Assembly (NCBI GenBank): GCA_001587575.1
Contig: LNJC01000003.1
Coordinates: forward strand, 2,937-66,936
Reading direction: 5' to 3'
Length of the DNA stretch: 64,000 nucleotides
From: Candidatus Methanofastidiosum methylothiophilum
Lineage (GTDB): Archaea > Methanobacteriota_B > Thermococci > Methanofastidiosales > Methanofastidiosaceae
The position numbers were made by a program, and so were the translations under genes. Under the pieces are notes generated by a model. The model searched no databases, was not told the origin of the DNA, and saw nothing but the letters and a program-made list of their open reading frames with translations. Shown here one piece after another: positions 39,889 through 63,971 of this stretch; the stretch's first letter is position 1, and every line of letters starts with the position of its first letter.

Positions 39889-39919
39889 TATACTCTCTTT
39901 TTGTTTTGACATTTCTAGT

Positions 39920-39950: not shown

Positions 39951-39966
39951 AATCTAGAGTGATTTT

Positions 39967-40509: not shown

Positions 40510-40516
40510 TGATCCT

Positions 40517-41979: not shown

Positions 41980-41981
41980 TT

Positions 41982-43825: not shown

Positions 43826-43847
43826 AATAACTTACAATATAGAATAC

Positions 43848-44102
43848 ATGAAGATTCTTTATTTTGGGGATTTGAAAGATATAACTCTAAAAAGGGAAGA
43901 GATAATTGATTTAGAGGCAATTAGAATTAAAGAGTTAAAGAATCTTCTTTCAGATAAATACCCCCAATTAAGGGAATCTTTTTTAAAGAATGAAATAAGG
44001 ATTATCATAAATGGAAAGGACTATTCTTTTACAGGTGGAGATGAAACCTTAGTTGCAAAAGACTTCGAAATAGCTCTTTTTTCTCCAGTTGGAGGTGGAT
44101 GA
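43848..44102 (+). CDS. MoaD/ThiS-like ubiquitin-fold small protein ending in Gly-Gly
   Basis: The 84-aa protein MKILYFGDLKD... has the beta-grasp pattern, and its C-terminus is ...ALFSPVGGG-stop. The stop TGA overlaps the ATG of the downstream arcTGT (GGATGAATG). Confidence 0.5.
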   Translation: MKILYFGDLKDITLKREEIIDLEAIRIKELKNLLSDKYPQLRESFLKNEIRIIINGKDYSFTGGDETLVAKDFEIALFSPVGGG

Positions 44103-45857: not shown

Positions 45858-46659
45858 AGCCAATAACAAATCTGAATGTCAAGTAGCCTATTGCAGTTAA
45901 GATTATGCTATGTTTAATTCCAGAAAATAAAGAGTTAGTTGTCATTTTCCCAATCATGAGCCCTGATAAAGCTCCGTGAATAATCAACATGTTCTGGAAT
46001 GTTGTCTTAAATGCTTCTTGATTAATACTTTCTTTAGCTGTTGGAAGTGTAATCCCTGAGAACACTTCTACAAATTGAGTCTGAAGTAAGAATACTACAG
46101 ACAAGAAAACTAGATAAGAAATATAGATAATACCGGTATATTGGCCAAGTTTAGAGGCCTGTTCTTTTTTAAGCCCCCTCATCATTCTAGCACTTTCGGC
46201 TGCAGACTCTAATATCTTGATGATATTCCCACCGGCGTGATGGGCTATAACGATAAGAGATACTGTTCCCTGAACATTTTCACTTTTTACTTTGTCTGCA
46301 AATGACGTCAAAACTTCATCAAAAGATACTCCCCAAGAAATCTTTGAGGCCATTATTTTTATTTCGTCTGTTAGTCTTCCGTAATCATCTTCCTGCGCCA
46401 TCTTTATGGCTTGGGGTAAAGTCATTCCAGCAGCCTGTGAATCTGCCAATGCTCTTAAAAACTCTGGAAACTGATCTTCTATTTCGTTAATCCATGTTTG
46501 TTCTCTCATTTTAATAAAAAGATATGGGCCTACTGCAACTGCTATTCCTGCAATGGCCAATTCACTCATATTCAAAACAAAAAATCCAATTAATCCTAAG
46601 ATTAATCCAGAGGCTATACTGCCAATCATTATGTACAAGTTATAATTTTTTTTTCTCAA
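45829..46659 (-). CDS. TadB-like type II secretion system F-domain membrane protein (archaeal pilus platform protein)
   Basis: The 276-aa protein has an N-terminal TM, a cytoplasmic helical domain and two C-terminal TMs, the T2SSF-domain topology. It is the last gene of the pilus-like operon. Confidence 0.55.
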   Translation of the reverse strand: MRKKNYNLYIMIGSIASGLILGLIGFFVLNMSELAIAGIAVAVGPYLFIKMREQTWINEIEDQFPEFLRALADSQAAGMTLPQAIKMAQEDDYGRLTDEIKIMASKISWGVSFDEVLTSFADKVKSENVQGTVSLIVIAHHAGGNIIKILESAAESARMMRGLKKEQASKLGQYTGIIYISYLVFLSVVFLLQTQFVEVFSGITLPTAKESINQEAFKTTFQNMLIIHGALSGLMIGKMTTNSLFSGIKHSIILTAIGYLTFRFVIGSNLLSGVLG

Positions 46660-46671
46660 ACTTACACCTTT

Positions 46672-47646
46672 TTACCTCTTGGGCGCTACCTGATCTACTG
46701 CTATGATGAATACAGCGTAGCCAACTGGCAGTCCGAAATATACAACTATATTATTAATCAAATTTACTTGTGACATTGGGGTTCCCATAATACCCATTAT
46801 TGTTGTCATGATTATAATAAATACTGGTCCAACAACTAAAGCAGTGACATAAGCTTCTGCAATTAAACCAATAGTTTCTATTGCAGCTTCAGTTTTCATT
46901 CTTTCAACTTCCATTAGCCTATTTCCTTCAATATACAAATACTCTTTTAGATTTCCCCCAGTCCTTATTGTAGCTATCATCTTCCATAAAAGTTCACTAA
47001 ATAATGGAGATGGAGATCTATTGGCCGCCCTCTGAAGTGCTTGAACTAAATCTAGGCCAAAGTTCTCAATATCATTTAATATTTTTTCAGACTCTCTTGA
47101 TACTTCACCATATCTCCTAAATTCTACTAGAGACCAAAAAATAACAGCTGGAGGCACTCCTGTTCCTGCTATTGTTGCCATAGTGTTAACGGCATTAGTC
47201 AATCCAAGATTAATTTTTCTAGATCTTTCACTAGCCTTAAAAGAAGGATAAATCCAGAATATCAAAAAAGTAGAAGATGCTGCTAATAATGAAATAATAA
47301 TGATTAACACTAAATCAAAAGTAATGTCTACAGATCTGCCAGGAGAAATAATTTCATTTACAAAATCTCCTAAAAAAAGGGGCACAGTAATTATAGAAAT
47401 AACTAAAGAAATCATCCCTACAATGATTGTAGTAAGAATCATTGCACTCACATAAGCTCCAAGATTTAGGGGGATGTCACCCTTTCTTAAAGGAACATGA
47501 AGTTCTTCAAAATTTTTTAGCCTTTTATCTACCAAAAAGCCAAATCTTTTATGGGCCATCTTCCCATAGTTCACAAAGAAGCCCCTTTTCTCGTATCTTT
47601 CGATTTCTTGGACTTCAAGGTCCTTTTCTTTTTTTCTGCCTAGCAT
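46672..47646 (-). CDS. TadC-like type II secretion system F-domain membrane protein
   Basis: The 324-aa protein has T2SSF topology, a central soluble domain and flanking TM helices. It lies immediately downstream of the secretion ATPase. Confidence 0.55.
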   Translation of the reverse strand: MLGRKKEKDLEVQEIERYEKRGFFVNYGKMAHKRFGFLVDKRLKNFEELHVPLRKGDIPLNLGAYVSAMILTTIIVGMISLVISIITVPLFLGDFVNEIISPGRSVDITFDLVLIIIISLLAASSTFLIFWIYPSFKASERSRKINLGLTNAVNTMATIAGTGVPPAVIFWSLVEFRRYGEVSRESEKILNDIENFGLDLVQALQRAANRSPSPLFSELLWKMIATIRTGGNLKEYLYIEGNRLMEVERMKTEAAIETIGLIAEAYVTALVVGPVFIIIMTTIMGIMGTPMSQVNLINNIVVYFGLPVGYAVFIIAVDQVAPKR

Positions 47647-49597: not shown

Positions 49598-51988
49598 CTA
49601 TTGATACACTTTAAAGTTGTAATATTGACTAGTTTCTTTTTTTATGCCGTCAATTTCAAAGGAATAAGTGAATACTAGTAAATAATCGCCCGGTCTTTTT
49701 ACATTGTATTTATATGTAGAAATATAAGTTGTGAATTCCTCTATGTTTATCCTTCCAGACCTTTCTAAAATTGAAGTATATTGATAGTAAGGAACTCTTT
49801 TTAGTAATACTCTTCCGATGCCATCTTTATGGTAAGGGATTATAGAAATTACCTGAAATCCAACTCCCCCACAATAGAAGATATCTTTTTCTAGTAGTTT
49901 ATTAGATCCATTAACATAGATATATCCCTCATTTTCGTCTATAATCCCATTTTTATTTTCGTCTACTCTAATTTTAATATATTTATTAAATGTATTAATC
50001 TCTTCAAATAATGTTCTAGTGTCACTAAGCCAAACTAACTGTCCTTGTTGAGGATAATAAAGATCATATTCGAAGAAGTTTTGGCTATTTATAGAAGAAA
50101 AACATGCAAGTAGCCCATCATCAGTTATTAAAGTACCGTTAGTATCTTTAGAAAAAGAGGGATTAGAGGATTGAATAATCAATTTATCTGTTAAATCGTT
50201 ATATCCATATTTCCATTTATTAACTACTTGATATTCTCCATCTTTCCATCCATAAAAGAGTCTTGTTTTACCAACAGGGGATTGTTTCATTTCTGACTTC
50301 ATATCGAATAATTTGAAATAAACATGCCATTTTTCATCTTTATTTAAAAAATTGACACTTTCTAGAACTAGAACATAGTTATTCAAAACGAATGAATCTC
50401 CTATCTCCAATAATACATCTTCGCCCAATAGGGTTTCAAATATTATTTGGTATGGATCGACATTCCCTAATCCATCTCTAACTAATCTTATTTCATAAGT
50501 ATTACTGCCTAATTTAAATTCTCCAGAGTCAGGATTTTGAGGGATATCTATTATGACTTCTAAATTATCTGTATTTCTCTTAAGGAAACTAACTAATGTA
50601 GTAGATATACTCCTAACAACGTATTCTTCTCCCCTTAGATTAAACTCAAATCCTTCTTCAATTGGATATGCAGAAACACATGCTAAACTTCCGACTGAAT
50701 CTCTACGACATCTTTGAATATCAAGCAGTATTTCTGAAGTTCCACTCAATTCATAGATCCCTTCAATTTTTTTAGTTAAAGTATTTATTTTGACTTTGTA
50801 TCTAGAACCTTCAGATTCAAAAATACCTTCGTCTAATGATAAATAAACATTAACAATTTCCCACATCTTTAATGAGCTTCCTAATCTTTTTGAACCGTTA
50901 ATATCTTTATCAGATATTGCACTTTCAAGATCATTATGAATAGAAGTGGAGATAATTACAGTATCGCCTGTTACTATTTCATTAGTTCTAATGCCATTTT
51001 CCTTAATTGCAAATACATCTATTAGCCCGTATCTTAATCCTGGAGATTCGTTAGGGTCAAAAGATTGTTTTCTTCTTTCTGTTTCTTGTAAAGAGATCTG
51101 GATATTTAATATTGTATATTTAATATAGTCATCTCTTTGTCCATTGGGAATATATTTAATATCCGTTATTTTAATCAAGTAATTATTTAATAAGAAAACG
51201 TCACCTTCATAAAATCTAGATATGCCATCTAGAGTTATTTGATTTCCACTTTGATTTAAAATTGTTATATAATTCCTTCCATCGTTTGCGATATTCAAAT
51301 AATTGTTCTCTACAAAAGGAGCTCTGTTTTCAATATTGTTCATTCCAGCGTAAGTTATTCTATATTCTCCAAAAGTATATGCCCTATTATTATACACAAT
51401 CCTTGAATTTGAAGAATAGTTCCCTTCTTTGAAGATAATTTCTACATCGCCATGAATCACATATGGATTCAAAGAAGAAGGATCGGATAATTTATTCAAA
51501 GGGGCGACTTCAAACTGGCCTATGTCAGAACTCATTAAATATCTTTTTGGGGAGTCAGATATTTTTCTCGTGTCAACTAATAATTTTCTATTAAAATTTC
51601 CAACTTCAAATACAGAAGGGCCAATGAATAATACATCATCATCAAAGGTGATGTTACTTGATTTAGAAACTTCGATACCCACGTCCAGCTTCGATAAATA
51701 ATAGTTTAACTCTTTTTCTTCGATAGCATAGTGGGCAGAATATATCCCTGCAAATGCATTGTGTATTGAATTAAGATTTCCTGTCCGATATATTTCTTCA
51801 AAAGCATTTTTTGAAGTATCTCTAAATGAACTTTCAATATAATTTGATATGAAAGGGATATCAGAATACCTTATGTCCTCTATTGATTGAGATACTTGAC
51901 GGTAAGAAAGTAGAGAATACTGAATAGCCAGAAGAGAAATTATTACAAGGATTGCAGCAAAGATAAAGAATTGAGATTTATTATTCAT
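49598..51988 (-). CDS. secreted 796-aa protein with class III (prepilin-like) signal peptide
   Basis: The N-terminus is MNNKSQFFIFAAILVIISLLAIQY: a short basic region, KSQ, then a hydrophobic helix, matching the archaeal FlaK/PibD substrate pattern [KR][GAS][QAV]. It overlaps the upstream gene stop by 4 nt. Confidence 0.5.
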   Translation of the reverse strand: MNNKSQFFIFAAILVIISLLAIQYSLLSYRQVSQSIEDIRYSDIPFISNYIESSFRDTSKNAFEEIYRTGNLNSIHNAFAGIYSAHYAIEEKELNYYLSKLDVGIEVSKSSNITFDDDVLFIGPSVFEVGNFNRKLLVDTRKISDSPKRYLMSSDIGQFEVAPLNKLSDPSSLNPYVIHGDVEIIFKEGNYSSNSRIVYNNRAYTFGEYRITYAGMNNIENRAPFVENNYLNIANDGRNYITILNQSGNQITLDGISRFYEGDVFLLNNYLIKITDIKYIPNGQRDDYIKYTILNIQISLQETERRKQSFDPNESPGLRYGLIDVFAIKENGIRTNEIVTGDTVIISTSIHNDLESAISDKDINGSKRLGSSLKMWEIVNVYLSLDEGIFESEGSRYKVKINTLTKKIEGIYELSGTSEILLDIQRCRRDSVGSLACVSAYPIEEGFEFNLRGEEYVVRSISTTLVSFLKRNTDNLEVIIDIPQNPDSGEFKLGSNTYEIRLVRDGLGNVDPYQIIFETLLGEDVLLEIGDSFVLNNYVLVLESVNFLNKDEKWHVYFKLFDMKSEMKQSPVGKTRLFYGWKDGEYQVVNKWKYGYNDLTDKLIIQSSNPSFSKDTNGTLITDDGLLACFSSINSQNFFEYDLYYPQQGQLVWLSDTRTLFEEINTFNKYIKIRVDENKNGIIDENEGYIYVNGSNKLLEKDIFYCGGVGFQVISIIPYHKDGIGRVLLKRVPYYQYTSILERSGRINIEEFTTYISTYKYNVKRPGDYLLVFTYSFEIDGIKKETSQYYNFKVYQ

Positions 51989-53139
51989 AATTTTTTCCTC
52001 CCCATTATTAAAGATACATAATAAGCTCTAACATTGCTACTAGTGTCCATAGTAGAAACAATTCTTTTCGCAGAAATTATTGATTCCATTTCTCCTGGCT
52101 TTTCTATACTTAATATACTCTTTTTATAAGGGACAAGATTAATGATTATATGCCCATTTATTCCATCGAAAGATAAAGTTTTAATATTTCCTGAATAATT
52201 CCCAAAAACCGTCCAATCTCCTCTTCTTAAACCTTTGGTGTAAGTTGTAAATTGATTAGGTTCACCAATTTTTTTCTCAATATCTAGTGTAGTTTCACTG
52301 GCAGTATTATTAAGTGTAAATCTAAAAGTATCATTAAAAATATTGATTATTTTTGTATTAGTTCCAATTAAATCGACGTATAATGTTTCATCAAGTAAAG
52401 CAAAAGAAATAGAATTACCATCTCTCGCAATATTTGATATTTGAAATGTATATTCATAAATTGTACCGCTAGAGTAAGATGAAAAAGAAACTATATCCCC
52501 TACCCTAAGAGGAGTACTACTTGAAAGTTTTGTTGTTGAGGTCGAAAAATCTAAAGCCGATAAAGGATTACCCCTCTCAAGTTTCAAATATACTGTGTCG
52601 TATCCTGGAACTTCGTCTATTGAATCAACTAATAACAATCCATATATCTTTACACTTCCTCCGTCAGGAAAATATATTGTATAATCTCCGGGCCACCCAG
52701 TTTGTGTTTCATGAAACTTCCAAATATTAGAATTATTAGACAAAGTACCTATTTTATAGCCATTTGTGAGAACTCCTGGATTATCAGAATCAAGGCTTGC
52801 ATCACCTTGAGTATTTATATATACTATATTTGTAATCTCAAATATATTAAATTTATACGCATAGCCAGGAGGTATAAGAGAATTAAGTTTCGTTTCGAGT
52901 AAACTAAATTGTCTATCATTTATATAGTATCCAAGTTCACTTTGATTATTAACTACACCTTTCTCAAGTATCACAAGAACATCCTCAGCTGAGTTTCTGG
53001 CATTTATTACTTCCCAAGAGGGATTTGAAGAAAATGTCGTTCCATAATCGCTTAATATGAATGAAACTCCCAATATCATTATAACTGCTGCAATAATTGC
53101 TTCGAATGTTCTCATTACTGATTTATTATTCATCAGCAT
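51985..53139 (-). CDS. secreted 384-aa protein with class III-like signal peptide
   Basis: The N-terminus is MLMNNKSVMRTFEAIIAAVIMILGVSFIL. Its start overlaps the upstream gene by 7 nt. Confidence 0.45.
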   Translation of the reverse strand: MLMNNKSVMRTFEAIIAAVIMILGVSFILSDYGTTFSSNPSWEVINARNSAEDVLVILEKGVVNNQSELGYYINDRQFSLLETKLNSLIPPGYAYKFNIFEITNIVYINTQGDASLDSDNPGVLTNGYKIGTLSNNSNIWKFHETQTGWPGDYTIYFPDGGSVKIYGLLLVDSIDEVPGYDTVYLKLERGNPLSALDFSTSTTKLSSSTPLRVGDIVSFSSYSSGTIYEYTFQISNIARDGNSISFALLDETLYVDLIGTNTKIINIFNDTFRFTLNNTASETTLDIEKKIGEPNQFTTYTKGLRRGDWTVFGNYSGNIKTLSFDGINGHIIINLVPYKKSILSIEKPGEMESIISAKRIVSTMDTSSNVRAYYVSLIMGRKKL

Positions 53140-53942
53140 ATTCTATTTCCCTCCCACATGATCAAAGTAAGCCTCTTTTCAGTTAGATTTCCAAACTCTT
53201 CGACCATGACAAGCCTAGATATAACAAGAACAATGTCAGAGTAGCTTCTATCTCTCCCTAAAACAATATCTGCAGCATCGATATTCAAGATTTGGGCCCC
53301 CTGTCCTGATTTGAATATGTCAGTTACAATATAAGTTCTTGAATCAAGTATGAAAGTATCTCCTTTAACAAATCCTAATTTTGGATTATTATCTTCATCA
53401 CGCCCATAAATCTCATTTGTTACTTCATCTTGAAAATTTTTATTCATGTTTATATCAATAAAAAGACGATCGTATTCCCCATTTTGATCAATATCTATAA
53501 TTAAGAATTCATAAGATCTAATTCCTAGATAGACTGTTTCAGTATTGAAGTGAGGTGGATAACTATCAGAAGGAGAGGATCCAGTTGGTAAGGAATAATT
53601 TAGATCACTTATATCTTTTGAGGTCATTATTCCTATAGTATTAACTTCTGTATGTGTGGAAGATATCAAGATCTGAATATCATAAACAGGTTTATTATTT
53701 GAATAGTCTAATAAACCAAGTTTTCTTAATAGTGAAATATAGCTGTTAGTTGACGTTTCTAGAGGACAAAAAGGGTATCTTGAAGTATCCTCATTTGATA
53801 CAAAGTCGACCATTTTATCGTAGGATAGTATATGATTTCTTGAAAGAAGACTATATGTAGGATCGGACATTATTTTTTCTATTGAAGAAATAGCCGTAAG
53901 TTGAACATCAACATATTCAGTTTTTTCTAGATAAGGATTCAA
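53133..53942 (-). CDS. pilin-like protein, 269 aa from the TTG in the ORF track; probably extends about 40 codons upstream to include a class III signal peptide
   Basis: The in-frame upstream sequence, with no intervening stop, reads ...IIKLFVKFNRSRKGQDIIDNIIALGIFTIAFLYVVYIAANS-[TTG]. This is a textbook archaeal prepilin signal (RKGQ plus a hydrophobic helix), but it lacks an in-frame ATG, GTG or TTG. Confidence 0.5.
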   Translation of the reverse strand: MNPYLEKTEYVDVQLTAISSIEKIMSDPTYSLLSRNHILSYDKMVDFVSNEDTSRYPFCPLETSTNSYISLLRKLGLLDYSNNKPVYDIQILISSTHTEVNTIGIMTSKDISDLNYSLPTGSSPSDSYPPHFNTETVYLGIRSYEFLIIDIDQNGEYDRLFIDINMNKNFQDEVTNEIYGRDEDNNPKLGFVKGDTFILDSRTYIVTDIFKSGQGAQILNIDAADIVLGRDRSYSDIVLVISRLVMVEEFGNLTEKRLTLIMWEGNRIC

Positions 53943-54064
53943 TGAATTTGCAGCAATATATACTACATAAAGAAAAGCGATAGTAAATATACCAAGGGCT
54001 ATTATATTATCTATTATATCTTGTCCTTTTCTAGACCGATTAAATTTAACGAATAATTTTATTA

Positions 54065-57000
54065 TTAACCCTCCTGGGGATTGGGTGACAAATAAGCGCC
54101 ATAACTAGTTATAACAACATACTTATTTTTTGAAATACTTGAAATTGTTCCATATATACTCATTCCTCTAAGCTCTTTAATGTACTCAACGTCTGCGTTT
54201 TTAGGATCATATATTAGAATTTTGTCTCCAAGTCCTTGAATAATATACTCCCTTGTGCCGATAGTATTTGGTATATCTAGATTAACCCATATGCCTTCTT
54301 CAATCTGAATGTTCTTAGTTGGTGCTGAGGTGTATGCCATTATATTATTGAACAGTCTTATCATACCCCTGTCTATAAAGGTAATGATAAAATTATTATC
54401 CATTATATCTCCATAAATAGATTCAACGTTTAAGTTAGTTTCAATTGGCCTTCCTTCATAAGTATTTATATTGATTTTTGTGATATCTTTTTCATTGAGA
54501 GTTCTCTCATCAGAAAACAAATTATTCCTATTGGTATCTATTTTAATCCATTTTTCAGATATATAAGCCTGAAAATTATTTGAGGCCCCAAAGGTGAAAT
54601 TGGACACTAATCTAAATTTATCATCATAAGGATCATTTATATCTCCAAGCTCTATAGCTTCTGGTTCAGAAAAAGTATAATTTATGGGGGTAAGATTAGT
54701 CAAAGTATTTGCAGTCCCATAAAGATCGTGTCTTGAAAAATTCCAACGTGTGTAATGGTAACCAACATTTAAGGAGATAACTCGGCCATCGTGAGTCATG
54801 AATATTACTTCTGATTTACCGTCGTTATCTATATCGTCTACAGCTACAGAACCTCTAATTGGGCTTCCTGTTGGATATTCCCATAGTTTATTGAGTTTAT
54901 TGTCGTCACTTGGAGGCAGAGAAGTATCGCCATTATCATCTCCTTGTGTAGTATCCCTATATGCTAACGCATATACTTTTCCGTCTTCCGCGCCAATTAC
55001 ACAATCGAAGAAAAAGGCATCATATTTTTTTTGGTGGGTACTATAGTTATTCACTTCTACTATAGCGGGTGTCGCATAAGAGGAAGTAAGAGAAGAAGAT
55101 TGAGTAATACGGCCCCTTACTTGATGAGTAAGGTCAAGATGTTGTATCATTAGATACTGGCCACCAGGAACTACCATCTGGGGCCCTCTTAAGTGAAATC
55201 CATTTGGAGAGTGTACTACTGGGTGGCCAGATATCAAATCGTTAGTGTTTGATTGAATGTTTAATTGTGTTAATTCACCAGTAGATCCATCTATCTTATA
55301 AGATCTTACTCTATCGTTTACAATAACAGACACCAACACATCTTTATAATTCTTTAAGTAGTCTGTTTGGGCAATAACAGGTGACGATACAATATAACCC
55401 AAGGGCATGTTTGGAGTGATGTTCGGAATTGTAAAATTTCTAAGAACACGATTATTCCAGTTCACTCCGTCAATTATGTATACATTACCATCAACTGAAG
55501 TCCAAATTATATCTAGATACCCATCTCTGTTTATATCTTCAATCGCAGGGGATGTTGAGGGCATCATTATTTGTGGGGTGTATGGAGAATTTGGAAGACG
55601 ATATGCAAATAAATTAGGGGATACGCTAATCTGTGTTCCAGATAATTTGAATAGTCTTTGACGAGTTTTACCACTATATGCATAAATATTATTTTTTATT
55701 GTAATGTTAGTATTTACAAGACTACTTTGGTTTTGTACATACTGAAGATTTGTAAAATATGTATCTACAACTATTATATCGTCATACCCATCATTATCTA
55801 TGTCAGCTATTGCAGGTGCGGAGAGCATTGCGCCGTCGATTGGGAATTTCCATAGAATATTTCCTGTTGCTGCGTCCAATACAGAAACATTAGAAGATGT
55901 TGTGCTAATTATAATTGTTCTTTGATTTAAACGGCGATCAAATTCTGCCATTATGTTTCCACCGCCAACAACTATCTCTAAAACTCCATCTTTATTTAGG
56001 TCGCATACTGCTGGCGACGATATTGCAGTAGGTGCATATAGGTACCGAGTATTACTTGAACTAACTACAGGCAAATTATTAACAACATTTTTTTCCCATA
56101 TCGTTGCACCGTCTGTTCCATTTATTGCCCTTACATTTCCATTTCTCATTCCTATGACTACATCAATTATACTATTATTGTTCACATCTGCTGTAGAAGG
56201 CGAAGAATTATTTAACAGCACCGGAAACTCGTTAGAAAGGATACTATTGTCCCCATCGTTCCAGGGAGGAAAAAATTCTGGATTATCAACTTGAACAGAC
56301 CATTTTTCACTAAGGGAGTTATCTGTAAGTCTATAAGAAGGAATAGATTTTTTTCCATTTTCTTCTATGTCATAATATATATCGTATATTCTTTTTGTTC
56401 CGGGTATTGTTCTTGATTGATTGTTTGAGGGGGTTGCGCCCATTGAAAAATAAACATATATGGGAGGATACTCTCTAAAGAAAAGATTGTTTCCGGATGG
56501 TGTTTTTTCATATAGTCTAAACAATACATTCTGATACCATGTCAAGACTTTGTTGTTGGGAGTTTCCATGGATAATCTAATCTTATTATCTCCTTTAATG
56601 AAATATTTTGCAGGTAAGGTACAACTAAAGCTTTCGGGCCCGTTCGTTTGCCCTCCGTCAAAAGGATTCCAGTATCCTGCTACAGGCGTATTACCGCCTT
56701 CTATGACTTCTGTAACAGGGACTTCATTAATAAAAACACGAAAATCTGTATTAATAGAGGGGCTTTCATCTTTGTATTGTGAACCAAAAGGAACTTCCAT
56801 TTCTAGTAGTATATTAACTGGATTATCTAATTCAAAGAAAATAGTATGCTCATGAAATTCTAGGGGAGAATTCCTATAACCTGCAGCTTGCATATTTGGC
56901 CTATAGGGATATGTTTGACTTGGAATTTCAATGTTCTGAGAGCAGTTACCTCCTATCAACTCGACAACTCTAATTGAGTCGAAATCTAATGTAGCTCTTT

Positions 57001-58414
57001 CGAGATCTAAGAAACCCTGTTTTGCAAGTCTATTAATATCGGCTGTTGGGTCAATAATAATCTCAATGGGTTCATTTACTCTAATTATATTTACTGGATC
57101 GACTTCAAGACGTTTTCTAAAATGCCAATCTGGAGGATTCCCGAGTTGTCCCGGATCCCACCATGCACATACATTAAATTTATTATCTACAATAGAATGG
57201 ATATCCACAGGAATAGACGTTGTAACTATTTTACCTGCCCCCCAAGTTGAAACTATGAGAGAAGGATTATTATTAAGATACGGCCCATATGGTGTCTCCC
57301 TTAGTAAGATTTCATTTGCAGGTCCATCGACAAAAGGCTCAACTATAGTTCCTTGTGCAGAAAAATAGCTTCCAGATATTTCATATGATTCAATATTATT
57401 AGTTATATTATGCTGTTTTGAAACTCCAATAGTATCATATTGTCCAGAATCAAAGGTAACGTTAACTGGAAGGAAGTCATATTTCTTTTTTTGATTGGGG
57501 TTTTGAGTGAACATTATCAAAGAACCCCCACTTTTTATATAGTTGTTTAAGATATCTTTAGTAGGATTTTGGGATAGAGAGTCAATCATATCGGATGTAG
57601 AGGGAATGAAAATATTAGTATAATAATTAATATACCTACTATCAATCCCATCTTTTTTTGAGTTAACAATATAGTAATTTGAAGGATAGACAGAATATTC
57701 TTCAACGTTGTCTACTACTTTATAATATTCAGACCAATAGGATTTTGGGTATTCTAAGAGAAAACATGTTTTTGCTAAGGATTCGGGAGGTTTGCCTGCA
57801 TCTCCGATTACAGCTGATTTAAAAGTTGGCGTCAAATAAACTATGTATTCCTGACCTCTGCCGGCCACCATTGGTTCAATTTTATATAAATAGAAATCCC
57901 CTATTATGTTCTTGTCTTTTAATTCTATAATTTGTGGATTTGAATATAGATTATAATCTCCATCAATGTAAAATCTTGTATTTAATTTTATTTCCTTTGT
58001 ATCTTTGATTGCTCCAGTTTTATCTTTAGTGGATAAGGACAATGACGTTGGAACTTGGTTATTGTTAGAAATAATACAGATTATTTTAAAAAATTCATTT
58101 TCCCCTACAAACTGACGTTCACTTTGGTTTATTAATCCACCGTCTTTAAGGGGTATAGTCATGTTTGTTTGGACAAGAGTTCTTTCAATCCAAGCAATTT
58201 CGTTATGGGCTACAGTATTTTCAATATAAGTAGCTATATTTTGAAAACTTTTCTCATCGATACGCTTAGAATAAGTTTGAGAAAACTCTTCTGACGTCCT
58301 CCAAAAAAATACGGTCGTTGCAAGTAAAATAGCAATTAGCATAATGGCCATAACTACATGCATTTGAGATTTTTTAGAGTGAATAAAATTAATGTTGAAT
58401 ATACTCATTTTCAT
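54065..58414 (-). CDS. giant (1449 aa) secreted protein with class III signal peptide and integrin-like FG-GAP beta-propeller repeats
   Basis: The N-terminus is MKMSIFNINFIHSKKSQMHVVMAIMLIAILLATTVFF (KSQ plus hydrophobic helix). There are multiple Ca-binding-loop-like DxDxDG repeats embedded in FG-GAP-like blades (DLNKDGVLEIVVGG, DIDNDGYDDIIVV, DINRDGYLDIIWTSVDGNVYII, DIDNDGKSEVIFMTHDGRVISL). Confidence 0.6.
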   Translation of the reverse strand: MKMSIFNINFIHSKKSQMHVVMAIMLIAILLATTVFFWRTSEEFSQTYSKRIDEKSFQNIATYIENTVAHNEIAWIERTLVQTNMTIPLKDGGLINQSERQFVGENEFFKIICIISNNNQVPTSLSLSTKDKTGAIKDTKEIKLNTRFYIDGDYNLYSNPQIIELKDKNIIGDFYLYKIEPMVAGRGQEYIVYLTPTFKSAVIGDAGKPPESLAKTCFLLEYPKSYWSEYYKVVDNVEEYSVYPSNYYIVNSKKDGIDSRYINYYTNIFIPSTSDMIDSLSQNPTKDILNNYIKSGGSLIMFTQNPNQKKKYDFLPVNVTFDSGQYDTIGVSKQHNITNNIESYEISGSYFSAQGTIVEPFVDGPANEILLRETPYGPYLNNNPSLIVSTWGAGKIVTTSIPVDIHSIVDNKFNVCAWWDPGQLGNPPDWHFRKRLEVDPVNIIRVNEPIEIIIDPTADINRLAKQGFLDLERATLDFDSIRVVELIGGNCSQNIEIPSQTYPYRPNMQAAGYRNSPLEFHEHTIFFELDNPVNILLEMEVPFGSQYKDESPSINTDFRVFINEVPVTEVIEGGNTPVAGYWNPFDGGQTNGPESFSCTLPAKYFIKGDNKIRLSMETPNNKVLTWYQNVLFRLYEKTPSGNNLFFREYPPIYVYFSMGATPSNNQSRTIPGTKRIYDIYYDIEENGKKSIPSYRLTDNSLSEKWSVQVDNPEFFPPWNDGDNSILSNEFPVLLNNSSPSTADVNNNSIIDVVIGMRNGNVRAINGTDGATIWEKNVVNNLPVVSSSNTRYLYAPTAISSPAVCDLNKDGVLEIVVGGGNIMAEFDRRLNQRTIIISTTSSNVSVLDAATGNILWKFPIDGAMLSAPAIADIDNDGYDDIIVVDTYFTNLQYVQNQSSLVNTNITIKNNIYAYSGKTRQRLFKLSGTQISVSPNLFAYRLPNSPYTPQIMMPSTSPAIEDINRDGYLDIIWTSVDGNVYIIDGVNWNNRVLRNFTIPNITPNMPLGYIVSSPVIAQTDYLKNYKDVLVSVIVNDRVRSYKIDGSTGELTQLNIQSNTNDLISGHPVVHSPNGFHLRGPQMVVPGGQYLMIQHLDLTHQVRGRITQSSSLTSSYATPAIVEVNNYSTHQKKYDAFFFDCVIGAEDGKVYALAYRDTTQGDDNGDTSLPPSDDNKLNKLWEYPTGSPIRGSVAVDDIDNDGKSEVIFMTHDGRVISLNVGYHYTRWNFSRHDLYGTANTLTNLTPINYTFSEPEAIELGDINDPYDDKFRLVSNFTFGASNNFQAYISEKWIKIDTNRNNLFSDERTLNEKDITKININTYEGRPIETNLNVESIYGDIMDNNFIITFIDRGMIRLFNNIMAYTSAPTKNIQIEEGIWVNLDIPNTIGTREYIIQGLGDKILIYDPKNADVEYIKELRGMSIYGTISSISKNKYVVITSYGAYLSPNPQEG

Positions 58415-58423: not shown

Positions 58424-61400
58424 TCAATCTATTAATATTTCATGGCCACAAGCATATACAATGATATTTTGCTGCAATTTCCTTGCATCGGTAACATATA
58501 CCTCATTTGGATGCATATTTGTTCCCATAGAAGTTCTATTATTCTTGTATCTATCCAAATCCAAAGTTGTTACTATAATGGCAGATTCAAGATTATTGAA
58601 TATATTCCTTCTTTCTTTTACCATAAGAACTGGCCCACCCGTTGCTTGGGGCACAAAAATAGTTCCTCCTGTAACCCTAAAAGGTCCGCTTGGAACAGGT
58701 ATCTCATTTGGATCCCCTTTTACTTCATATATTTTATCAAATGTCTTTAAGTTAAAAATAATATTGTTATTTGTCCATCCAGTATCTCTTATGTCAAAAT
58801 ATCCGTGTGTGCACATTGCGAATTCGTTTGGAAGCCTAAAAGTAATTGGATTTTCTAGGGATGATTTTTGTAAATTATACTTATTGCCTATGTTTAAATT
58901 AAGATTAAGATCATTAAGCCAGTCTAATCCCTGGAAAGGCCTTCCACGGGGCCAAGTTGCTGCCTGGCCATCAAGTCCAAAAAAGAATTCTCCTTCAGGC
59001 ATGTCCCCATGATCCCACTCTATTCTATTTCCATATTTATCTATATAAAGAGCTCCTGACCATTGCTGGGTTGTAATCGTATTTGGATTTCCTGGAGGGC
59101 CTCTGCTGTTTTGCCATGCAGTGTATATTACAGGAAGATTTCTATGCACATCATTTAGTTCTCCATAGATTTTATAGCTCTCTCCAATTGGTTCAGTTGA
59201 TACCCTACCTATCGATAGATCTGAGCCTTGGAATGTTGGAAGCCATGAATACTTCCCGTAATAATATGTATTCGGAGGAGAATTATATCTTTGTTTAGAA
59301 GTAATAATATATGAATCATAAGTAGACTCCCAATTATTCTCGTTTATTGCAGTAATAAAAATTTTGTTATTAGTATCGCCTGCATAGTAAGGAATAGTAA
59401 ATGTTATGTTATTGAAGCTATAAACATATTGTGTTCCTTCTGCACAGACACCTGAAGTATTGACATTTATCGTACCGGAACCAGGTAAGTATTCATAACT
59501 TTCATCTCTTATAAGAACTAAGCTACCTGGAGATTGCATAGCATATCTTATTTTTCCAATTTTCCCAATTGATATTTCTACTTCTTTAATTTTGTCTTTG
59601 CATTGATCTATAGTAAAATTCATAGAAACTGTAGCGCCTTCTTGAGCCCTGTGTTCCATAGAGAGGTTCTTAATAGTTGGGGCTAGTGATCTTGTGATAT
59701 AGTACCAATCACTAGTCTGGGATCTATTGCCAAGTTTATCCGATGCTTCTACCCTAACCTCAATCTTATACGTATTTTCCCAAGGCCATATGGGAGTATA
59801 AGATACTCTATAATCATTTAGGCCTAACGGATCTATTTTAATGTTATTAGTTACTTCCATGTTAATAACACTTGCATTTGAAGAAGATTTCCCAATAATA
59901 AACATTCTAATTGAATTTCTATCTACGCCTGCATATGAGTCTGTGATGTCTAGAGTGATTGGAGCTGTAGTAGATACTATATCATTCTGCCCAGGGGATA
60001 GATTACTAAAGATAGGGCCAGTCTTTTTAGCCCTTAATATGTTAGATTGCAAACTTGAACCTTCGTTTCCGGCAAGGTCTCTCATTATTATTTCTATACC
60101 ATATAGATTACCATCAATAACATTAGAAGGTATATCGATTTCATCCATTATTGTATGTGTTCCACCGCCAGTTACATAATTAAGATTGGGAGTAGTAATG
60201 ACTCTTGGAGCTGTTTCTAAAATTGTATTCGAGCCATCACGTAATCTAATTATGTATGATGCCGGATATTTTTCAGTATATGTAAAAGTGATATATGCTT
60301 TACCTCCTGCCCTTACAGTTTGAGGATTAACAGACGTAGGGGCATTAATAGTAATATTTGGATTAGAATTATCATAAATTACCCACCTAGTCGCATAAGT
60401 ATCGTTCTGATCACTACCTGTGGGCTCTCCGTCTACTTTTACCCTGATAATATTTAATCCTACAGTCAAAGGATTTACATTAAAACTAAAACTTGGATTT
60501 GGAGATAAAGAAAAAGCGGGGGCCACTGAATTCACGTCCCATGAAGCTGAACTTGCTGGAGTAGAGCCGATAAAGTTTATAGATGACTGATTAGTAAATG
60601 TCAAGAAGGTTTGAGGTTGACTTATTGTTAAATTAGGCCCAGGATTATTGAAATAAAAACTCCAATTATTTACTAAGAAGTTTCCTAATGTATCTTCAAT
60701 ATATACTGTTGAAGTATGAGTTCCATCGTTTATATCGGCCGCGGGGATATGCGTAATACTGTTAGTATTACTTGAAATTTTATAGTCTCCATCTAAATAA
60801 AGCCTCGATCCTAGGATACCCGCACCTAAATCATCATAATTTACAAATATTACTGGTGTACTGTTAAGGGCTTGTGTCTCTGGAGATTTACTTAAAATCA
60901 AAGGAGGGGCCCTATCTCTTAGAATTTCAATTTTCGTTAAAAGTGTATTTTGGGCTCGATCGTATGTAACAAAAGAATAATTATAATCTCCCTCTGAAAG
61001 CGGCAAATAGTAATAATAATTATGAGGATCTGTCCAGATTGGATTATTTACAAATTGTAAAACCTGAGTCTGATACATTGACTTATCAATTCCACTTAAA
61101 GCATCTGATGCAGAATAATCTATTCTTGTATAGGGGCTAATTGTAGGTGAAGTTATAATAGGAGTTATTACAGAACTAGATGGAAGAACTGCATCCTTTT
61201 TAATTTCAAATCTAAAGATAGAAGCAGGATTATTTGTATAAAAACTAGAGCGTTCTATAAAGTTACCCTGCTCATCAGTTGATTGGAATCTAACTTGATA
61301 AATTCCAGCCAGATACTCTCCTGGAACTGGCCATTCTGTAGAAAAGGTATTGTCTTGTGCCAATCTATCTGGTGTAATACCATTATCAAATAAGAATTTT

Positions 61401-63121
61401 CCCCCCACAAGGACTCCATCGGCTTCCCTATAAATATTTACCCCCGCATGGATAATACTGCTTACATCAGTTATGTTAGAATAAAAGACAATTTTCCCGC
61501 CATCTCCATTTATCCATATGGAAGGAAGTTGGATTCCAGATGAGTTCTGATCATCTGTGATTATGTTAGGATTTAGTATTCTAGGGGGGTCAAGATCTGA
61601 TAGAACTGAAGGATGAGGATAATAGTTATCGTTATCTGGGTCAGGCTCTGCTGAGGCACTATCAATTGAGAATTGCCCGAAGGTTATAAGCCCTCTAGAG
61701 TAGTCCACGCCTTTAAATGATAACCTATTAAGGGCTAAGAAATTTGTCAGATCGCCCCTATAAGAATTAAGTTTTGGTAATAAATTAGGATCATTTGTAG
61801 CTCCTGAACCTACAATTATAAGCGAGAAGTCTCTATAGTTTAATATATCGGGATTGCCATCAATTGCAGCTATTTCTGCGAACCTAGGATCTAAAGTTCC
61901 ATATTCTGAAGGGCTTCTTCTTTCAGTAGGGTCAAGAAGCCACTTAATCGGGTACATCTGAACATTAATAGTTGTTCCAGGATAGTTAATTCCGTTTAAT
62001 CCAACAGGGGAATCAACACTTCCATACAAAACGAAATAATTACAGTGATAATTACTGTCAGAAGTAGCATCAAATGCATCCATAGTATCGAATAAAAGAT
62101 TATCAAAATTCTCTGTATTGTACATAACTAAGGCAATTGGAATAGATTCAAAAATATCTTGTTTTGTTAATTTATACATTGGAATATTGAAAAAATTATT
62201 AGCATCATAATAAGATTCAAAATCATTTTTTGGAGCGGCTATGAATTCGCTCATATTTACAATCCATGGCCCTAAATTTTTAGCAAAGTTTAATTTATAC
62301 AAATCGGTTTTAGTATAAATTTGCCCTTCATTTTCTTTCATCACATATGAGGTAAGGTTAACACGTATGTACAACTTCAAATCATTTACCCAATCAGATT
62401 TAGGAAGTCTAACTGCATATCTTCCTTGAGAATTAGTTCTAGTGATGGCTATTGTTTCAAGTTTATCATTAATAAAAACGATTTCGGCATTTGCAAGAGG
62501 GGGGTCAATTGTATTCCCAGTTGTGTTCATTGTGGGGCTAGTTTCATTTTGTCCTTCAGTGTTATCATAGACATAACCCTGTAGGGTCCATGTATCCCCC
62601 GTAACTGGAATCTCTGGAGAAAGGCTTAGGAGTACATCATTTGCCCCCTCATTTTTTATGTATATTCTATATTGTCCTGCATTTAAAACTTCAAATCTTG
62701 AAATAATGTCAATTTCTCCACCATACTGAAGTTTAACATTAATTGCTCTCCCAGTAAAATAAGTATCCATTCCCATCTGTTGAGGTGCTGATTCTATTCC
62801 TGGTGCGTCCATGAAAAATATAATTGTATCGTTATTTTGGTCAGTTAGTATACTTCCCTTATCAAAATTAATATCAATATAACGTTGTGCTCCTTCTCCC
62901 TCAAATCTAACTTCTCTAATTTTTTTATCAAGTTCTAACAGAGCGTTTTGCATTGAATTAATCCTTGAAACGTCCCTTGACCTCTCAATCTGTGGTCCTG
63001 CAAATCGATACGCGGCAAAAACGGCGGCCACGGTAATAGCTAAAATTAACATTACTGTAATTACTTCTACTTGAGCCTTTTTTGATACTGGCCCTCTTTT
63101 TCTGATTATTTTATACCCCAT
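58424..63121 (-). CDS. giant (1565 aa) secreted protein with class III signal peptide, carboxypeptidase-regulatory-like and multiple Ig-like/beta-sandwich regions
   Basis: The N-terminus is MGYKIIRKRGPVSKKAQVEVITVMLILAITVAAVFAAY (KAQ plus hydrophobic helix). A CarboxypepD_reg-like segment reads AEIVFINDKLETIAITRTNSQGRYAVRLP. The rest is beta-rich, repetitive, and N/T/S-rich, with many N-x-S/T sequons. Confidence 0.6.
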   Translation of the reverse strand: MGYKIIRKRGPVSKKAQVEVITVMLILAITVAAVFAAYRFAGPQIERSRDVSRINSMQNALLELDKKIREVRFEGEGAQRYIDINFDKGSILTDQNNDTIIFFMDAPGIESAPQQMGMDTYFTGRAINVKLQYGGEIDIISRFEVLNAGQYRIYIKNEGANDVLLSLSPEIPVTGDTWTLQGYVYDNTEGQNETSPTMNTTGNTIDPPLANAEIVFINDKLETIAITRTNSQGRYAVRLPKSDWVNDLKLYIRVNLTSYVMKENEGQIYTKTDLYKLNFAKNLGPWIVNMSEFIAAPKNDFESYYDANNFFNIPMYKLTKQDIFESIPIALVMYNTENFDNLLFDTMDAFDATSDSNYHCNYFVLYGSVDSPVGLNGINYPGTTINVQMYPIKWLLDPTERRSPSEYGTLDPRFAEIAAIDGNPDILNYRDFSLIIVGSGATNDPNLLPKLNSYRGDLTNFLALNRLSFKGVDYSRGLITFGQFSIDSASAEPDPDNDNYYPHPSVLSDLDPPRILNPNIITDDQNSSGIQLPSIWINGDGGKIVFYSNITDVSSIIHAGVNIYREADGVLVGGKFLFDNGITPDRLAQDNTFSTEWPVPGEYLAGIYQVRFQSTDEQGNFIERSSFYTNNPASIFRFEIKKDAVLPSSSVITPIITSPTISPYTRIDYSASDALSGIDKSMYQTQVLQFVNNPIWTDPHNYYYYLPLSEGDYNYSFVTYDRAQNTLLTKIEILRDRAPPLILSKSPETQALNSTPVIFVNYDDLGAGILGSRLYLDGDYKISSNTNSITHIPAADINDGTHTSTVYIEDTLGNFLVNNWSFYFNNPGPNLTISQPQTFLTFTNQSSINFIGSTPASSASWDVNSVAPAFSLSPNPSFSFNVNPLTVGLNIIRVKVDGEPTGSDQNDTYATRWVIYDNSNPNITINAPTSVNPQTVRAGGKAYITFTYTEKYPASYIIRLRDGSNTILETAPRVITTPNLNYVTGGGTHTIMDEIDIPSNVIDGNLYGIEIIMRDLAGNEGSSLQSNILRAKKTGPIFSNLSPGQNDIVSTTAPITLDITDSYAGVDRNSIRMFIIGKSSSNASVINMEVTNNIKIDPLGLNDYRVSYTPIWPWENTYKIEVRVEASDKLGNRSQTSDWYYITRSLAPTIKNLSMEHRAQEGATVSMNFTIDQCKDKIKEVEISIGKIGKIRYAMQSPGSLVLIRDESYEYLPGSGTINVNTSGVCAEGTQYVYSFNNITFTIPYYAGDTNNKIFITAINENNWESTYDSYIITSKQRYNSPPNTYYYGKYSWLPTFQGSDLSIGRVSTEPIGESYKIYGELNDVHRNLPVIYTAWQNSRGPPGNPNTITTQQWSGALYIDKYGNRIEWDHGDMPEGEFFFGLDGQAATWPRGRPFQGLDWLNDLNLNLNIGNKYNLQKSSLENPITFRLPNEFAMCTHGYFDIRDTGWTNNNIIFNLKTFDKIYEVKGDPNEIPVPSGPFRVTGGTIFVPQATGGPVLMVKERRNIFNNLESAIIVTTLDLDRYKNNRTSMGTNMHPNEVYVTDARKLQQNIIVYACGHEILID

Positions 63122-63200: not shown

Positions 63201-63971
63201 CTACATTACTATTTTCTTTCTTGAAAACTCTGTCCCCATTACTATAGCAAGAGCTGAAGAGAATATGAGTATCAGTGAAAGCATAAGGTCAAGGAATATG
63301 CCTAGATTTGGTATAGGAAGCCCAGGAAGTCCTTTGAAGACTAGGAAGAGCACACCTGATAGTAACCATAATCCTCCAACAATATAGAGTACACCGTTAT
63401 CACTCCCCTTTGAACCAGAAGGAGTTCTTGCTTTCGTTCCAAAGAGTATCGGCGGTATCCCAGTAATCATCATTACAATGTAAAATGCAATCCCCATGAA
63501 ACTAGATTTTAGAATATTAAATACAGAGGAAATTGGATTATTTTGAGGAAGCATTCCCATATTATTGAACAAAAAGAATATAGCAAACGCAAGCCACACA
63601 AAACCCAATAAGTAAAGTGTTATTGGGGCAAAGATTGATCCTCCTTTTTTAGTTGGCTCTCCTTTCAGGTCTTTCATTAACTCTTTTGTGTCGATTCCGA
63701 GCTCCTGTGCTTCTCTTAAAATTTCTTCCATTGAAGGCTCTTCGCCAATTGGCTCATCTAGACTAAATCCAGAAGACTTTTTTGAGAAGATTGTATCAAT
63801 TCTTTCATCGGGCAATACTTGATTTACTTTTTTTAAGAAATCACTCTCTGAGAATTCATCTAGAGTTTCGTCGATGATTTTTTCATGTTTTTCTATAGTT
63901 GTGCCTTTTGTTTCTTCAATTGATTTTTTTGCATCTTCAGTTATTTTTCTTTCAAAGATCTCTTCAGGCAC
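63201..63971 (-). CDS. membrane protein with ~110-aa acidic cytoplasmic N-domain and 4 TM helices; first gene of the pilus-like operon, probably 5'-truncated by the window end
   Basis: The track ORF starts at GTG 63971, but the reading frame stays open to position 64000. The TM region reads GGSIFAPITLYLLGFVWLAFAIFFLF... Confidence 0.4.
   Translation of the reverse strand: MPEEIFERKITEDAKKSIEETKGTTIEKHEKIIDETLDEFSESDFLKKVNQVLPDERIDTIFSKKSSGFSLDEPIGEEPSMEEILREAQELGIDTKELMKDLKGEPTKKGGSIFAPITLYLLGFVWLAFAIFFLFNNMGMLPQNNPISSVFNILKSSFMGIAFYIVMMITGIPPILFGTKARTPSGSKGSDNGVLYIVGGLWLLSGVLFLVFKGLPGLPIPNLGIFLDLMLSLILIFSSALAIVMGTEFSRKKIVM

Follow-up and report, generated by a model that had tools for sequence, protein, structure and literature searches.

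We analysed a 64,000-nucleotide stretch of contig LNJC01000003.1 from Candidatus Methanofastidiosum methylothiophilum (the window, in what follows) and found that a 1449-amino-acid (aa) protein encoded on its minus strand, here called giant 2, carries an FG-GAP beta-propeller with eight predicted blades and conserved calcium-type loops. An earlier note on this DNA had described the open reading frame (ORF) and quoted its N-terminus as prepilin-like; the ORF, with an ATG start, and the quoted sequence were confirmed. The gene lies in an operon of eight genes that encodes five large pilin-like proteins together with a type IV pilus-type assembly ATPase and a TadC/FlaJ-like platform. We consider the odds slightly in favour of giant 2 belonging to an archaeal type IV pilus-like filament, as a modular minor pilin or as the tip adhesin, with cleavage, incorporation and ligand binding as predictions of this reading.

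The G+C content of the window is ~33%, and its genes are archaeal, among them an archaeosine tRNA-guanine transglycosylase with a PUA domain, a pyruvate:ferredoxin oxidoreductase and HypD. We found 16 full-length orthologs of giant 2 (48-80% identity), all in metagenome-assembled genomes (MAGs) of Candidatus Methanofastidiosum or its relatives and named 'PQQ-like beta-propeller repeat protein' or 'hypothetical' in the databases. Giant 2 and these orthologs form the 17-member family used below for alignment, Pfam counts and column identity. In a scan of one genome per GTDB species, relatives were confined to MAGs assigned to Methanofastidiosum, 'uncultured Thermococci' and 'Methanobacteriota'. 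Giant 2 belongs to a small, unannotated archaeal family, small because an exhaustive HMMER search gave only two real distant relatives, P0025 and P0029.

The FG-GAP propeller and its calcium-type loops

The Pfam models FG-GAP_3 (PF13517; 1.6e-13, 51.5 bits against a cutoff of 26.9) and FG-GAP (PF01839; 2.4e-13, 50.1 bits against a cutoff of 22.1) matched giant 2 well above their gathering thresholds, as the earlier note had anticipated, and both matched 17/17 family members. Two other propeller models came out just above gathering in giant 2, PQQ_2 (32.4 bits, cutoff 27.6) and the lambda-carrageenase propeller Beta-prop_CGLA (30.9 bits, cutoff 26.8; matched in 17/17 members). The CGLA match is confined to positions 21-73 of a 316-position profile, roughly the length of one blade, and the PQQ_2 match is of similar extent.

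Structures of giant 2 were predicted with AlphaFold 2 (AF2) from the 17-sequence alignment as two separate halves (aa 1-720 and aa 696-1449). The model of the second half predicts a beta-propeller with high confidence, as had been proposed from the sequence, with a predicted local distance difference test (pLDDT) score mostly of 85-95 over aa ~700-1221. The DSSP string of this model contains eight inner 'x-P-A-V/I' strands with three more strands after each, and therefore eight blades, a count read from predicted secondary structure and the identity of the fold matches and not from coordinates or a solved structure. The blade starts were placed at aa ~737, 799, 865, 954, 1010, 1062, 1113 and 1187.

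When the model was compared with the PDB, Foldseek returned 495 matches at E ≤ 0.001, with probability 1.0 to propellers. The best 50 of these 495 were led by BamB, tetrathionate hydrolase, YxaL and pyrroloquinoline quinone (PQQ) alcohol dehydrogenases, all of which we take to be eight-bladed; the best match reached E ~1e-11 over ~530 aligned columns, with a TM-score of ~0.7 normalised on BamB. The family sequence profile, searched against the PDB, matched only designed eight-blade 'Bagel' propellers. Integrins were absent from the best 50 of the 495 Foldseek matches and from the PDB profile search. The label 'integrin-alpha-like' given in the earlier note was therefore dropped: eight blades were counted instead of seven, the nearest folds are of the BamB/PQQ type, and together with the absence of integrins among the fold and profile matches this led us to reject an integrin-like seven-blade propeller. 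As modelled, the propeller combines the FG-GAP calcium hairpin with the eight-blade geometry of PQQ- and BamB-like proteins.

Assignment to one of the structurally similar families was rejected in two cases. Giant 2 scored 33 bits against the BamB equivalog cutoff of 285, and 11.7 bits against the cutoff of 480 of the NCBIfam PQQ alcohol dehydrogenase model. The PilY1-type propeller (PF05567 / IPR008707) gave no match in giant 2 and a weak one (E 0.0026) in 1/17 family members.

A regular-expression scan of giant 2 found strict D-x-[DN]-x-D-G loops at aa 805, 871, 960 and 1194 and a degenerate one, DVNNNS, at aa 743, in agreement with the earlier count of at least four such loops in a hydrophobic blade context. 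The four strict motifs compare with a mean of 0.059 and a maximum of 2 in 2000 residue shuffles of the protein. The loops share the context [ST][SA]P[AS][VI]-x-loop-x-x-[DE]-[IV][IV][IV], in which the inner strand precedes the loop and an acidic residue and a further strand follow it. The motifs of blades 1-4 are 62, 66 and 89 aa apart, one to each blade, and blade 8 also has one. The periodic spacing expected of such a propeller was thus found in part, since blades 5-7 have lost the motif; periodicity follows the blades and not a fixed distance.

The presumptive ligand positions are conserved in the family. Positions 1, 3, 5 and 9 of the loop are D, N or E in five blades (1, 2, 3, 4 and 8) in essentially all 17 orthologs, and D743 and D751 of the degenerate blade 1 loop are also invariant across the 17 sequences. 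These conserved D-x-D-x-D-G-x-x-D/E loops probably bind Ca2+, as their sequences suggest.

The N-terminus and the eight-gene operon

Translation of the ORF gives the N-terminus of giant 2 as MKMSIFNINFIHSKKSQMHVVMAIMLIAILLATTVFFWRTSEE, with the junction MKMSIFNINFIHSKKS/QMHVVMAIMLIAILLATTVFFW that had been quoted before (that is, …SKKS/QMHVVMAIMLIAILLATTVFFW; slashes mark predicted prepilin-peptidase sites). It shows the class-III-type pattern, in which a short basic leader ends in a small residue and ~20 hydrophobic residues without charge come next; the uncharged helix of aa 17-39 would be a filament-core or membrane segment. In the AF2 model aa 14-78 are helical, but pLDDT is low past aa 32. 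The K-[SA]-Q junction is kept among the orthologs and the Gln at +1 (Q17) is nearly invariant, while the leader itself varies (identity 0.52). Pilins processed by EppA in M. maripaludis have Gln at +1 (PMC3875500), and the EppA-type signature consists of this Gln plus Glu at +5 (PMC3875500); giant 2 has Val at +5, not an acidic residue. We infer the pilin nature of the giant 2 N-terminus from this motif together with the genomic context.

That context consists of eight minus-strand genes running from position 63121 down to 45829 with gaps of at most 69 bases, several pairs overlapping (Table 1). Leaders of the class-III type are found in the first five genes, immediately upstream of the ATPase and TadC genes; giant 2 comes second among them, and directly 5' of it sits giant 1, another very large pilin-like protein. 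In all five, the leader ends in [KR]-[GAS] and is followed by at least 20 uncharged hydrophobic residues; the +1 residue is Q in giant 2 and gene 5 and V in gene 4, and gene 3 has Asp at +5. The N-terminus of giant 1, scanned alone, matched the archaellin/type IV pilin N-terminal domain TIGR02537 with 25.1 bits (cutoff 20), and the protein also gave weak matches to DUF7289, Pilin_N, Big_13, Big_3_3, DUF4625 and CarboxypepD_reg. The ATPase encoded by gene 6 is FlaI-like, scoring 395 bits, below the 550-bit equivalog cutoff, and it scored 200 bits with the model of the bindosome ATPase BasE, far below cutoff. The two TadC genes map to positions 15-248 and 291-542 of the 555 of FlaJ, that is, to its N- and C-terminal halves. 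The same eight genes in the same order surround the giant 2 ortholog of 48% identity.

The start of gene 3 deserves separate mention. Within 53133-54107 there is no ATG, GTG or TTG between the in-frame stop at 54107-54105 and the signal peptide, only ATA, ATT and TTA. In more distant orthologs the ATG of gene 3 overlaps or closely follows the giant 2 stop codon (TAATG or TAATTATG), and at the same junction the window and the ortholog loci L003, L007 and L008 read TAATA or TAAAAATA. This suggests that gene 3 may use a non-canonical start or termination-reinitiation. Databases annotate it at 265-291 aa without the signal peptide, for example as APG12_00302 (269 aa) of Ca. Methanofastidiosum methylothiophilum, to which a neighbouring gene product of the window is 100% identical. 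At the other end of the operon, directly upstream of giant 1, lies a membrane protein gene (63201-63971, minus strand) with ~4 hydrophobic segments and no family match; in the ortholog locus L001 this position is held by a 407-aa gene without a Pfam match.

Table 1. Giant 2, its segments and loops, and the other genes of the operon (window positions; aa numbering of giant 2; slashes mark predicted cleavage sites)
Feature	Position	Strand	Basis or remark
Whole gene of giant 2, 1449-aa modular pilin-like protein	54065..58414	minus	ATG-start ORF confirmed
Leader peptide, aa 1-16, MKMSIFNINFIHSKKS	58367..58414	minus	Predicted prepilin-peptidase site after Ser16, Gln at +1
Hydrophobic uncharged N-terminal helix, aa 17-39, QMHVVMAIMLIAILLATTVFFWR (23 residues)	58298..58366	minus	Column identity 0.92
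N-terminal scaffold, aa 40-416: rest of helix, beta-sheet head aa 85-203, alpha/beta region	57167..58297	minus	AF2 pLDDT 80-90 for aa 85-203
Beta-sandwich, aa 417-700, from WWDP…WHFRK to …YDIYYDIEENGKK.IP.YR	56315..57166	minus	AF2 beta strands, pLDDT 55-92
Predicted eight-bladed FG-GAP beta-propeller, aa ~701-1221	54752..56314	minus	Pfam, AF2, Foldseek
Blade 1 loop DVNNNSIID, aa 743-751	56162..56188	minus	Degenerate here; D-x-D-x-D-G in most orthologs
Blade 2 calcium-type loop DLNKDGVLE, aa 805-813	55976..56002	minus	D805, D809, E813 invariant, 17/17
Blade 3 calcium-type loop DIDNDGYDD, aa 871-879	55778..55804	minus	D871, D875, G876, D879 invariant
Blade 4 calcium-type loop DINRDGYLD, aa 960-968	55511..55537	minus	Position 1 D in 13/17; position 9 D/E in 17/17
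Blade 8 calcium-type loop DIDNDGKSE, aa 1194-1202	54809..54835	minus	D1194, D1198, G1199, E1202 invariant
C-terminal module, aa 1222-1449	54068..54751	minus	Last ~100 aa (…DRGMIRLFNNIMAYTSAPTKNIQIEEGIWVNLD…KYVVITSYGAYLSPNP) nearly invariant
Gene 1, giant 1, 1565-aa pilin-like (…VSKKA/QVEVITVMLILAITVAAVF) with immunoglobulin-like repeats	58424..63121	minus	TIGR02537 match
Gene 3, ~310-aa pilin-like (…NRSRKG/QDIIDNIIALGIFTIAFLYVVY; junction …RKG/QDIIDNIIALGIF)	53133..54065	minus	No canonical start before signal peptide
Gene 4, 384-aa pilin-like (MLMNNKS/VMRTFEAIIAAVIMILG; …NKS/VMRTFEAII)	51985..53139	minus	Weak DUF7288 matches
Gene 5, 796-aa pilin-like (MNNKS/QFFIFAAILVIISLL; MNNKS/QFFIFAAIL)	49598..51988	minus	Homologs in distant loci, 27-28% identity
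Gene 6, type IV pilus/archaellum-type assembly ATPase, 625 aa	47651..49528	minus	Pfam T2SSE 4.5e-32, weak PilB3_C
Genes 7 and 8, TadC/FlaJ-like platform	45829..47646 (324 aa, 46672-47646; 276 aa, 45829-46659)	minus	Pfam T2SSF each

Distant loci and the modular design of giant 2

A profile of aa 40-700, searched exhaustively with HMMER over 1.84 billion representatives, found two true distant relatives, P0025 (1158 aa) and P0029 (1143 aa); a word-indexed search for relatives of this region gave fragments only. At the loci of both proteins each of the five pilin-like genes has a homolog (26-31% identity; 27% for gene 4), and their order among themselves is unchanged. In a 'Methanomicrobia archaeon' MAG (GCA_023133315.1; loci L017/L018), whose giant 2 homolog is P0025, the ATPase and the two TadC genes stand upstream of the pilin-like genes instead of downstream. 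Here the ATPase is 69% identical to that of the window, the TadC genes 53-57% and the pilin-like genes 26-31%. That the linkage survives both rearrangement and divergence argues strongly for the five proteins being partners of the ATPase/TadC machine or substrates that it handles. The leaders at the distant loci are of the classical short kind, with 4-6 residues (MDKKA/Q, MLNRKS/Q, MVNRRG/V, MNKKG/F and MKNKKS/Q), and those of the distant giant 2 homologs read MLNRKS/Q and MNGKS/Q. Two further loci, L015 and L016, likewise have the eight-gene system with the ATPase and the two TadC genes first.

The distant homologs share the ends of giant 2 but not its middle. P0025 aligns to aa 14-439 of giant 2 with its aa 33-436 (26% identity, E 1e-31) and again to aa 1352-1442 (36% identity, E 5e-11), and P0029 is also homologous to the N-terminal module and the C-terminus. 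The middle of P0025 is unrelated to that of giant 2: it contains neither the beta-sandwich nor the propeller, and had no Pfam match. The same was seen for giant 1, which shares with its distant homologs (974-1005 aa) only the N-terminal ~500-560 aa and the C-terminal ~120 aa. Since both the N-terminal module (~430 aa) and the C-terminal one (~100 aa) are retained in the distant homolog and the propeller is not, the propeller appears to be a swappable cargo module. From these alignments the N- and C-terminal modules would form a carrier whose middle is cargo exchangeable between lineages, with propeller and beta-sandwich apparently specific to the Methanofastidiosum lineage.

Conservation within the family is distributed accordingly along the protein. 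Over the 17 sequences, column identity is 0.92 in the hydrophobic helix, 0.85 in the rest of the helix and 0.82 in the last 100 residues (also the mean for aa 1346-1449), compared with 0.60 in the propeller. The propeller is therefore the least conserved module among the orthologs, and the helix and the C-terminus are the most conserved.

The AF2 model of the N-terminal half (aa 1-720) consists of the helix (aa 14-78), a confident beta domain (aa 85-203), an alpha/beta region (aa 211-302), an unmodelled stretch (aa 303-430) and the beta-sandwich (aa 431-690). This half had no relative among PDB sequences and matched no Pfam family. At the other end of the protein, the last 228 residues (aa 1222-1449) were modelled with low confidence. 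If the C-terminal module folds back onto the N-terminal domain, models made from separate halves could be expected to do poorly at both aa 303-430 and aa 1222-1449. The alpha/beta region at aa ~255-400 may resemble class-I glutamine-amidotransferase-like 'ThuA/DUF4159' domains, a likeness that no tool result supported and that we do not claim.

The beta-sandwich is absent from P0025 and P0029. Weak relatives of it, with the pattern WW..W.YR…YYxIYFD, occur in two other large surface proteins (P0033 and P0034). Despite this common pattern, we rejected an assignment to DUF2341 (PF10102), which had no match in giant 2 or its 16 orthologs at E ≤ 1, nor in P0033 and P0034 at E ≤ 0.01.

Several other features of the window lie away from the operon. 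A 1655-aa secreted protein (1394-6361, minus strand) carries a Sec-type signal together with repeats of the DUF11, CARDB, TRAP_beta and CarboxypepD_reg families; its C-terminal tail is rich in lysine, and no PGF-CTERM-like hydrophobic anchor was seen. Near it, a 165-aa membrane ORF (7626-8123, plus strand) gave a weak match of the exosortase/archaeosortase type (Exosortase_EpsH, 4.9e-7). A 294-aa protein (12594-13478, minus strand) matched the outer domain of an S-layer-like family (S_layer_C, 1.3e-27). An ORF at 6732-7502 (minus strand) encodes a MinD/ParA-type ATPase with the motif GKGGVGKTT. Stand-alone FleN/MinD ATPases have been described as partners of type IV pilus systems in archaea (PMC4858521), but we claim no link here because the gene is ~38 kb from the pilus operon. 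GC skew and AT skew are positive only at ~35000-46000, where genes lie on the plus strand, and negative elsewhere, which looks like a gene-strand effect rather than a replication feature.

Readings of the locus and what they would mean

Several known systems resemble the locus in part. The large adhesin-like class-III proteins of archaeal Clade 1 type IV pilus loci have been proposed to be PilY1-like tip adhesins (Makarova, Koonin & Albers 2016, PMC4858521). Like the loci of those adhesins (arCOG03508), the one studied here encodes two large pilin-like proteins, further pilin-like proteins, one ATPase and two TadC proteins, but DUF2341 was not detected and no EppA gene was found in the locus. 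Two TadC genes also occur in archaeal Clade 2 loci (PMC4858521), and the weak matches to DUF7288, DUF7289 and PilB3_C point to euryarchaeal Clade 2, whereas the two giants resemble the Clade 1 model. With two TadC genes in both clades and mixed family signals, the locus may belong to either clade; Methanofastidiosum itself is placed in or near Thermococci.

For the comparison with bacteria, we take IPR013517 to be the InterPro entry of the FG-GAP repeat. Architectures joining a pilin motif to this entry (IPR012902 + IPR013517) are listed in Dataset S1 of Raynaud et al. (2021, PMC8179133), where bacterial modular pilins were shown to be adhesins, probably located at the tip; S. sanguinis provides two examples, PilB, which bears a vWA module, and PilC, whose module is a lectin. 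Giant 2 has in common with these proteins a pilin-type N-terminus, a bulky, putatively ligand-binding module presumably at the tip, probable metal-dependent binding, and a cargo, FG-GAP, that is already catalogued among them. It differs in being archaeal, in lacking IPR012902/TIGR02532, in being about three times larger and in belonging to a five-gene cassette of large pilin-like proteins; moreover, its cargo seems to lie between conserved modules at the two ends of the protein and not to be simply appended.

Propellers are also found in other adhesive or envelope proteins. In integrin alpha, too, the first and second strands of a blade are joined by the D-x-D-x-D-G-x-x-D calcium hairpin of the FG-GAP repeat, and the propeller serves adhesion, as that of giant 2 may, but it has seven blades where eight are predicted for giant 2. 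The eight-bladed propellers of BamB, YxaL and PQQ-type proteins superpose best on that of giant 2 and yet lack both its FG-GAP calcium loops and its pilin-like context. Orans et al. are said to have described, in 2010, an EF-hand-like calcium site in the propeller of PilY1. PilY1/PilC, the tip adhesins of bacterial type IVa pili, would resemble giant 2 in tip presentation with minor pilins, a beta-propeller with a calcium site and a modular N-terminal part (modularity, PMC8179133). PilY1, however, does not belong to the pilins, and its propeller is a modified one of seven blades (PF05567), whereas in giant 2 the propeller protein itself has the pilin-type N-terminus. By analogy, giant 2 would work like a modular pilin or a PilY1-type tip adhesin while standing outside the families that define those. 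In the literature searched, no paper connects class III signals of archaea with FG-GAP, and none connects type IV pili with Methanofastidiosum.

If giant 2 is a modular minor pilin or tip adhesin, the following steps can be proposed. After membrane insertion, a prepilin peptidase would remove the short basic leader after Ser16. The conservation of the operon suggests that the ATPase and the split TadC platform would extract the hydrophobic helix from the membrane, and that giant 2 would then join the cassette's four other pilin-like proteins in a filament of the type IV pilus kind. An analogy for placing giant 2 at the filament tip is offered by GspK, by PilY1 with the minor pilins and by the modular pilins of bacteria, since a body of ~160 kDa would be too bulky to pack in the shaft. 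The N-terminal ~430 aa and the C-terminal ~100 aa would serve as the conserved carrier scaffold around an exchangeable middle, and the exposed cargo, beta-sandwich and eight-bladed FG-GAP propeller with its putative Ca2+-binding loops, may act as an adhesive, ligand-binding head.

A number of results weigh against this proposal. The isolated N-termini of giant 2 and of its homologs P0025 and P0029 had no match to the pilin N-terminal hidden Markov models (HMMs) TIGR02537 and Pilin_N (PF07790), and an NCBIfam scan did not find the bacterial prepilin motif (IPR012902/TIGR02532) in the giant 2 N-terminus. The residue at -1 is Ser where Gly or Ala is usual, and +5 is not acidic. The N-terminal half of giant 2 has no significant fold match, and its long helix was modelled with low confidence. 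When the heads of giant 1 and giant 2 were compared with hhalign, the alignment was confined to 17 columns of the hydrophobic helix (E 0.018), and without the helix there was none. Finally, motif scan, transmembrane scan and Pfam search of membrane ORFs found neither a small major pilin nor a prepilin peptidase in the 64-kb window. Of the 'pilin-like' N-terminus of the earlier note, the leader motif and the type IV pilus-like operon stand, and a pilin HMM match and a significant fold match are missing.

The best of the rival explanations, which we nevertheless think unlikely, is that the cassette builds a short envelope complex, comparable to the Sulfolobus bindosome or to the pseudopilus of type II secretion, which displays the propeller without forming a long filament. 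All five cassette proteins are large (310-1565 aa), and the operon encodes no small major pilin in either lineage. Archaeal class III signals also serve non-pilus proteins, such as the substrate-binding proteins of the bindosome, which are processed by PibD (PMC4858521), and the ATPase does give a match to BasE, if one far below cutoff. Its score is nevertheless much better with FlaI, and the missing major pilin is uninformative because archaeal major pilins are often encoded elsewhere, as stand-alone genes (PMC4858521).

We give considerably less credit to the idea that giant 2 is an uncleaved signal-anchor (type II) membrane protein whose location beside pilus genes reflects co-regulation and not co-assembly. 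The absence of a pilin HMM match and the Ser at -1 would fit such an anchor, as would a leader of 16 aa, longer than the 4-6 aa of the distant homologs. On the other hand, the pattern of K-[GAS]-Q and a hydrophobic helix recurs in five adjacent genes, the eight-gene link with ATPase and TadC survives rearrangement at 26-31% identity, and a passive anchor would not usually be, as this helix is, the best conserved segment of its protein. Least probable of all, and in our view very unlikely, is a surface enzyme with a catalytic propeller (a polysaccharide lyase or hydrolase like PL11 or lambda-carrageenase, or a PQQ-type enzyme) and an N-terminus serving only for anchoring or export: the above-threshold CGLA and PQQ_2 matches, a 'CBM-like PL4 domain III' match in 3 orthologs (E 0.0011), the structural neighbours tetrathionate hydrolase and PQQ alcohol dehydrogenases and the NCBI ortholog name speak for it, but the CGLA match, covering about one blade, reflects a generic repeat and not an enzyme, giant 2 stays far under the cutoffs of the PQQ-dehydrogenase and BamB models, its fold is matched best by BamB, which is not catalytic, and a propeller that is the least conserved module and absent in the distant homolog fits a binding cargo better than a conserved active site.

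The reading of giant 2 as a modular minor pilin or tip adhesin can be taken one step further, to a proposal that we hold only tentatively and think unlikely. The eight-gene system would be what archaea have in place of the tip or priming complex that bacteria form from 'minor pilins + PilY1', a counterpart so far undescribed, with the five co-evolving pilin-like proteins as a tip machine. The giants would be 'insertion-type' modular pilins, their N- and C-terminal modules folding together as the carrier and the middle being a swappable effector, which in Methanofastidiosum would be a Ca2+-dependent eight-bladed FG-GAP head.

The concept of such proteins is already known: examples from bacteria have been catalogued, and archaeal ones were predicted. 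What is new is the eight-blade FG-GAP cargo, along with the carrier design with N- and C-terminal modules, the conserved five-pilin cassette and a natural cargo-less homolog. The locus would extend the 'modular pilin' principle from bacteria to archaea, and it suggests a design in which the cargo is bracketed by N- and C-terminal carrier modules, for which the cargo-less homolog elsewhere provides a natural comparison. It also corrects the database annotation of the giant 2 orthologs, named as PQQ-like or hypothetical proteins, and of gene 3, whose signal peptide was omitted.

Methanofastidiosa, methyl-reducing methanogens that have not been cultured, are common in sediments and digesters, and to our knowledge nothing is known about their cell surface. 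The locus offers a concrete and conserved candidate for attachment, with a complete pilus-type assembly module and five pilin-like proteins, one of them bearing a calcium-loop propeller. If the tip-machine proposal is true, a Ca2+-dependent head might attach this obligately partner-dependent methanogen to its syntrophic partners.

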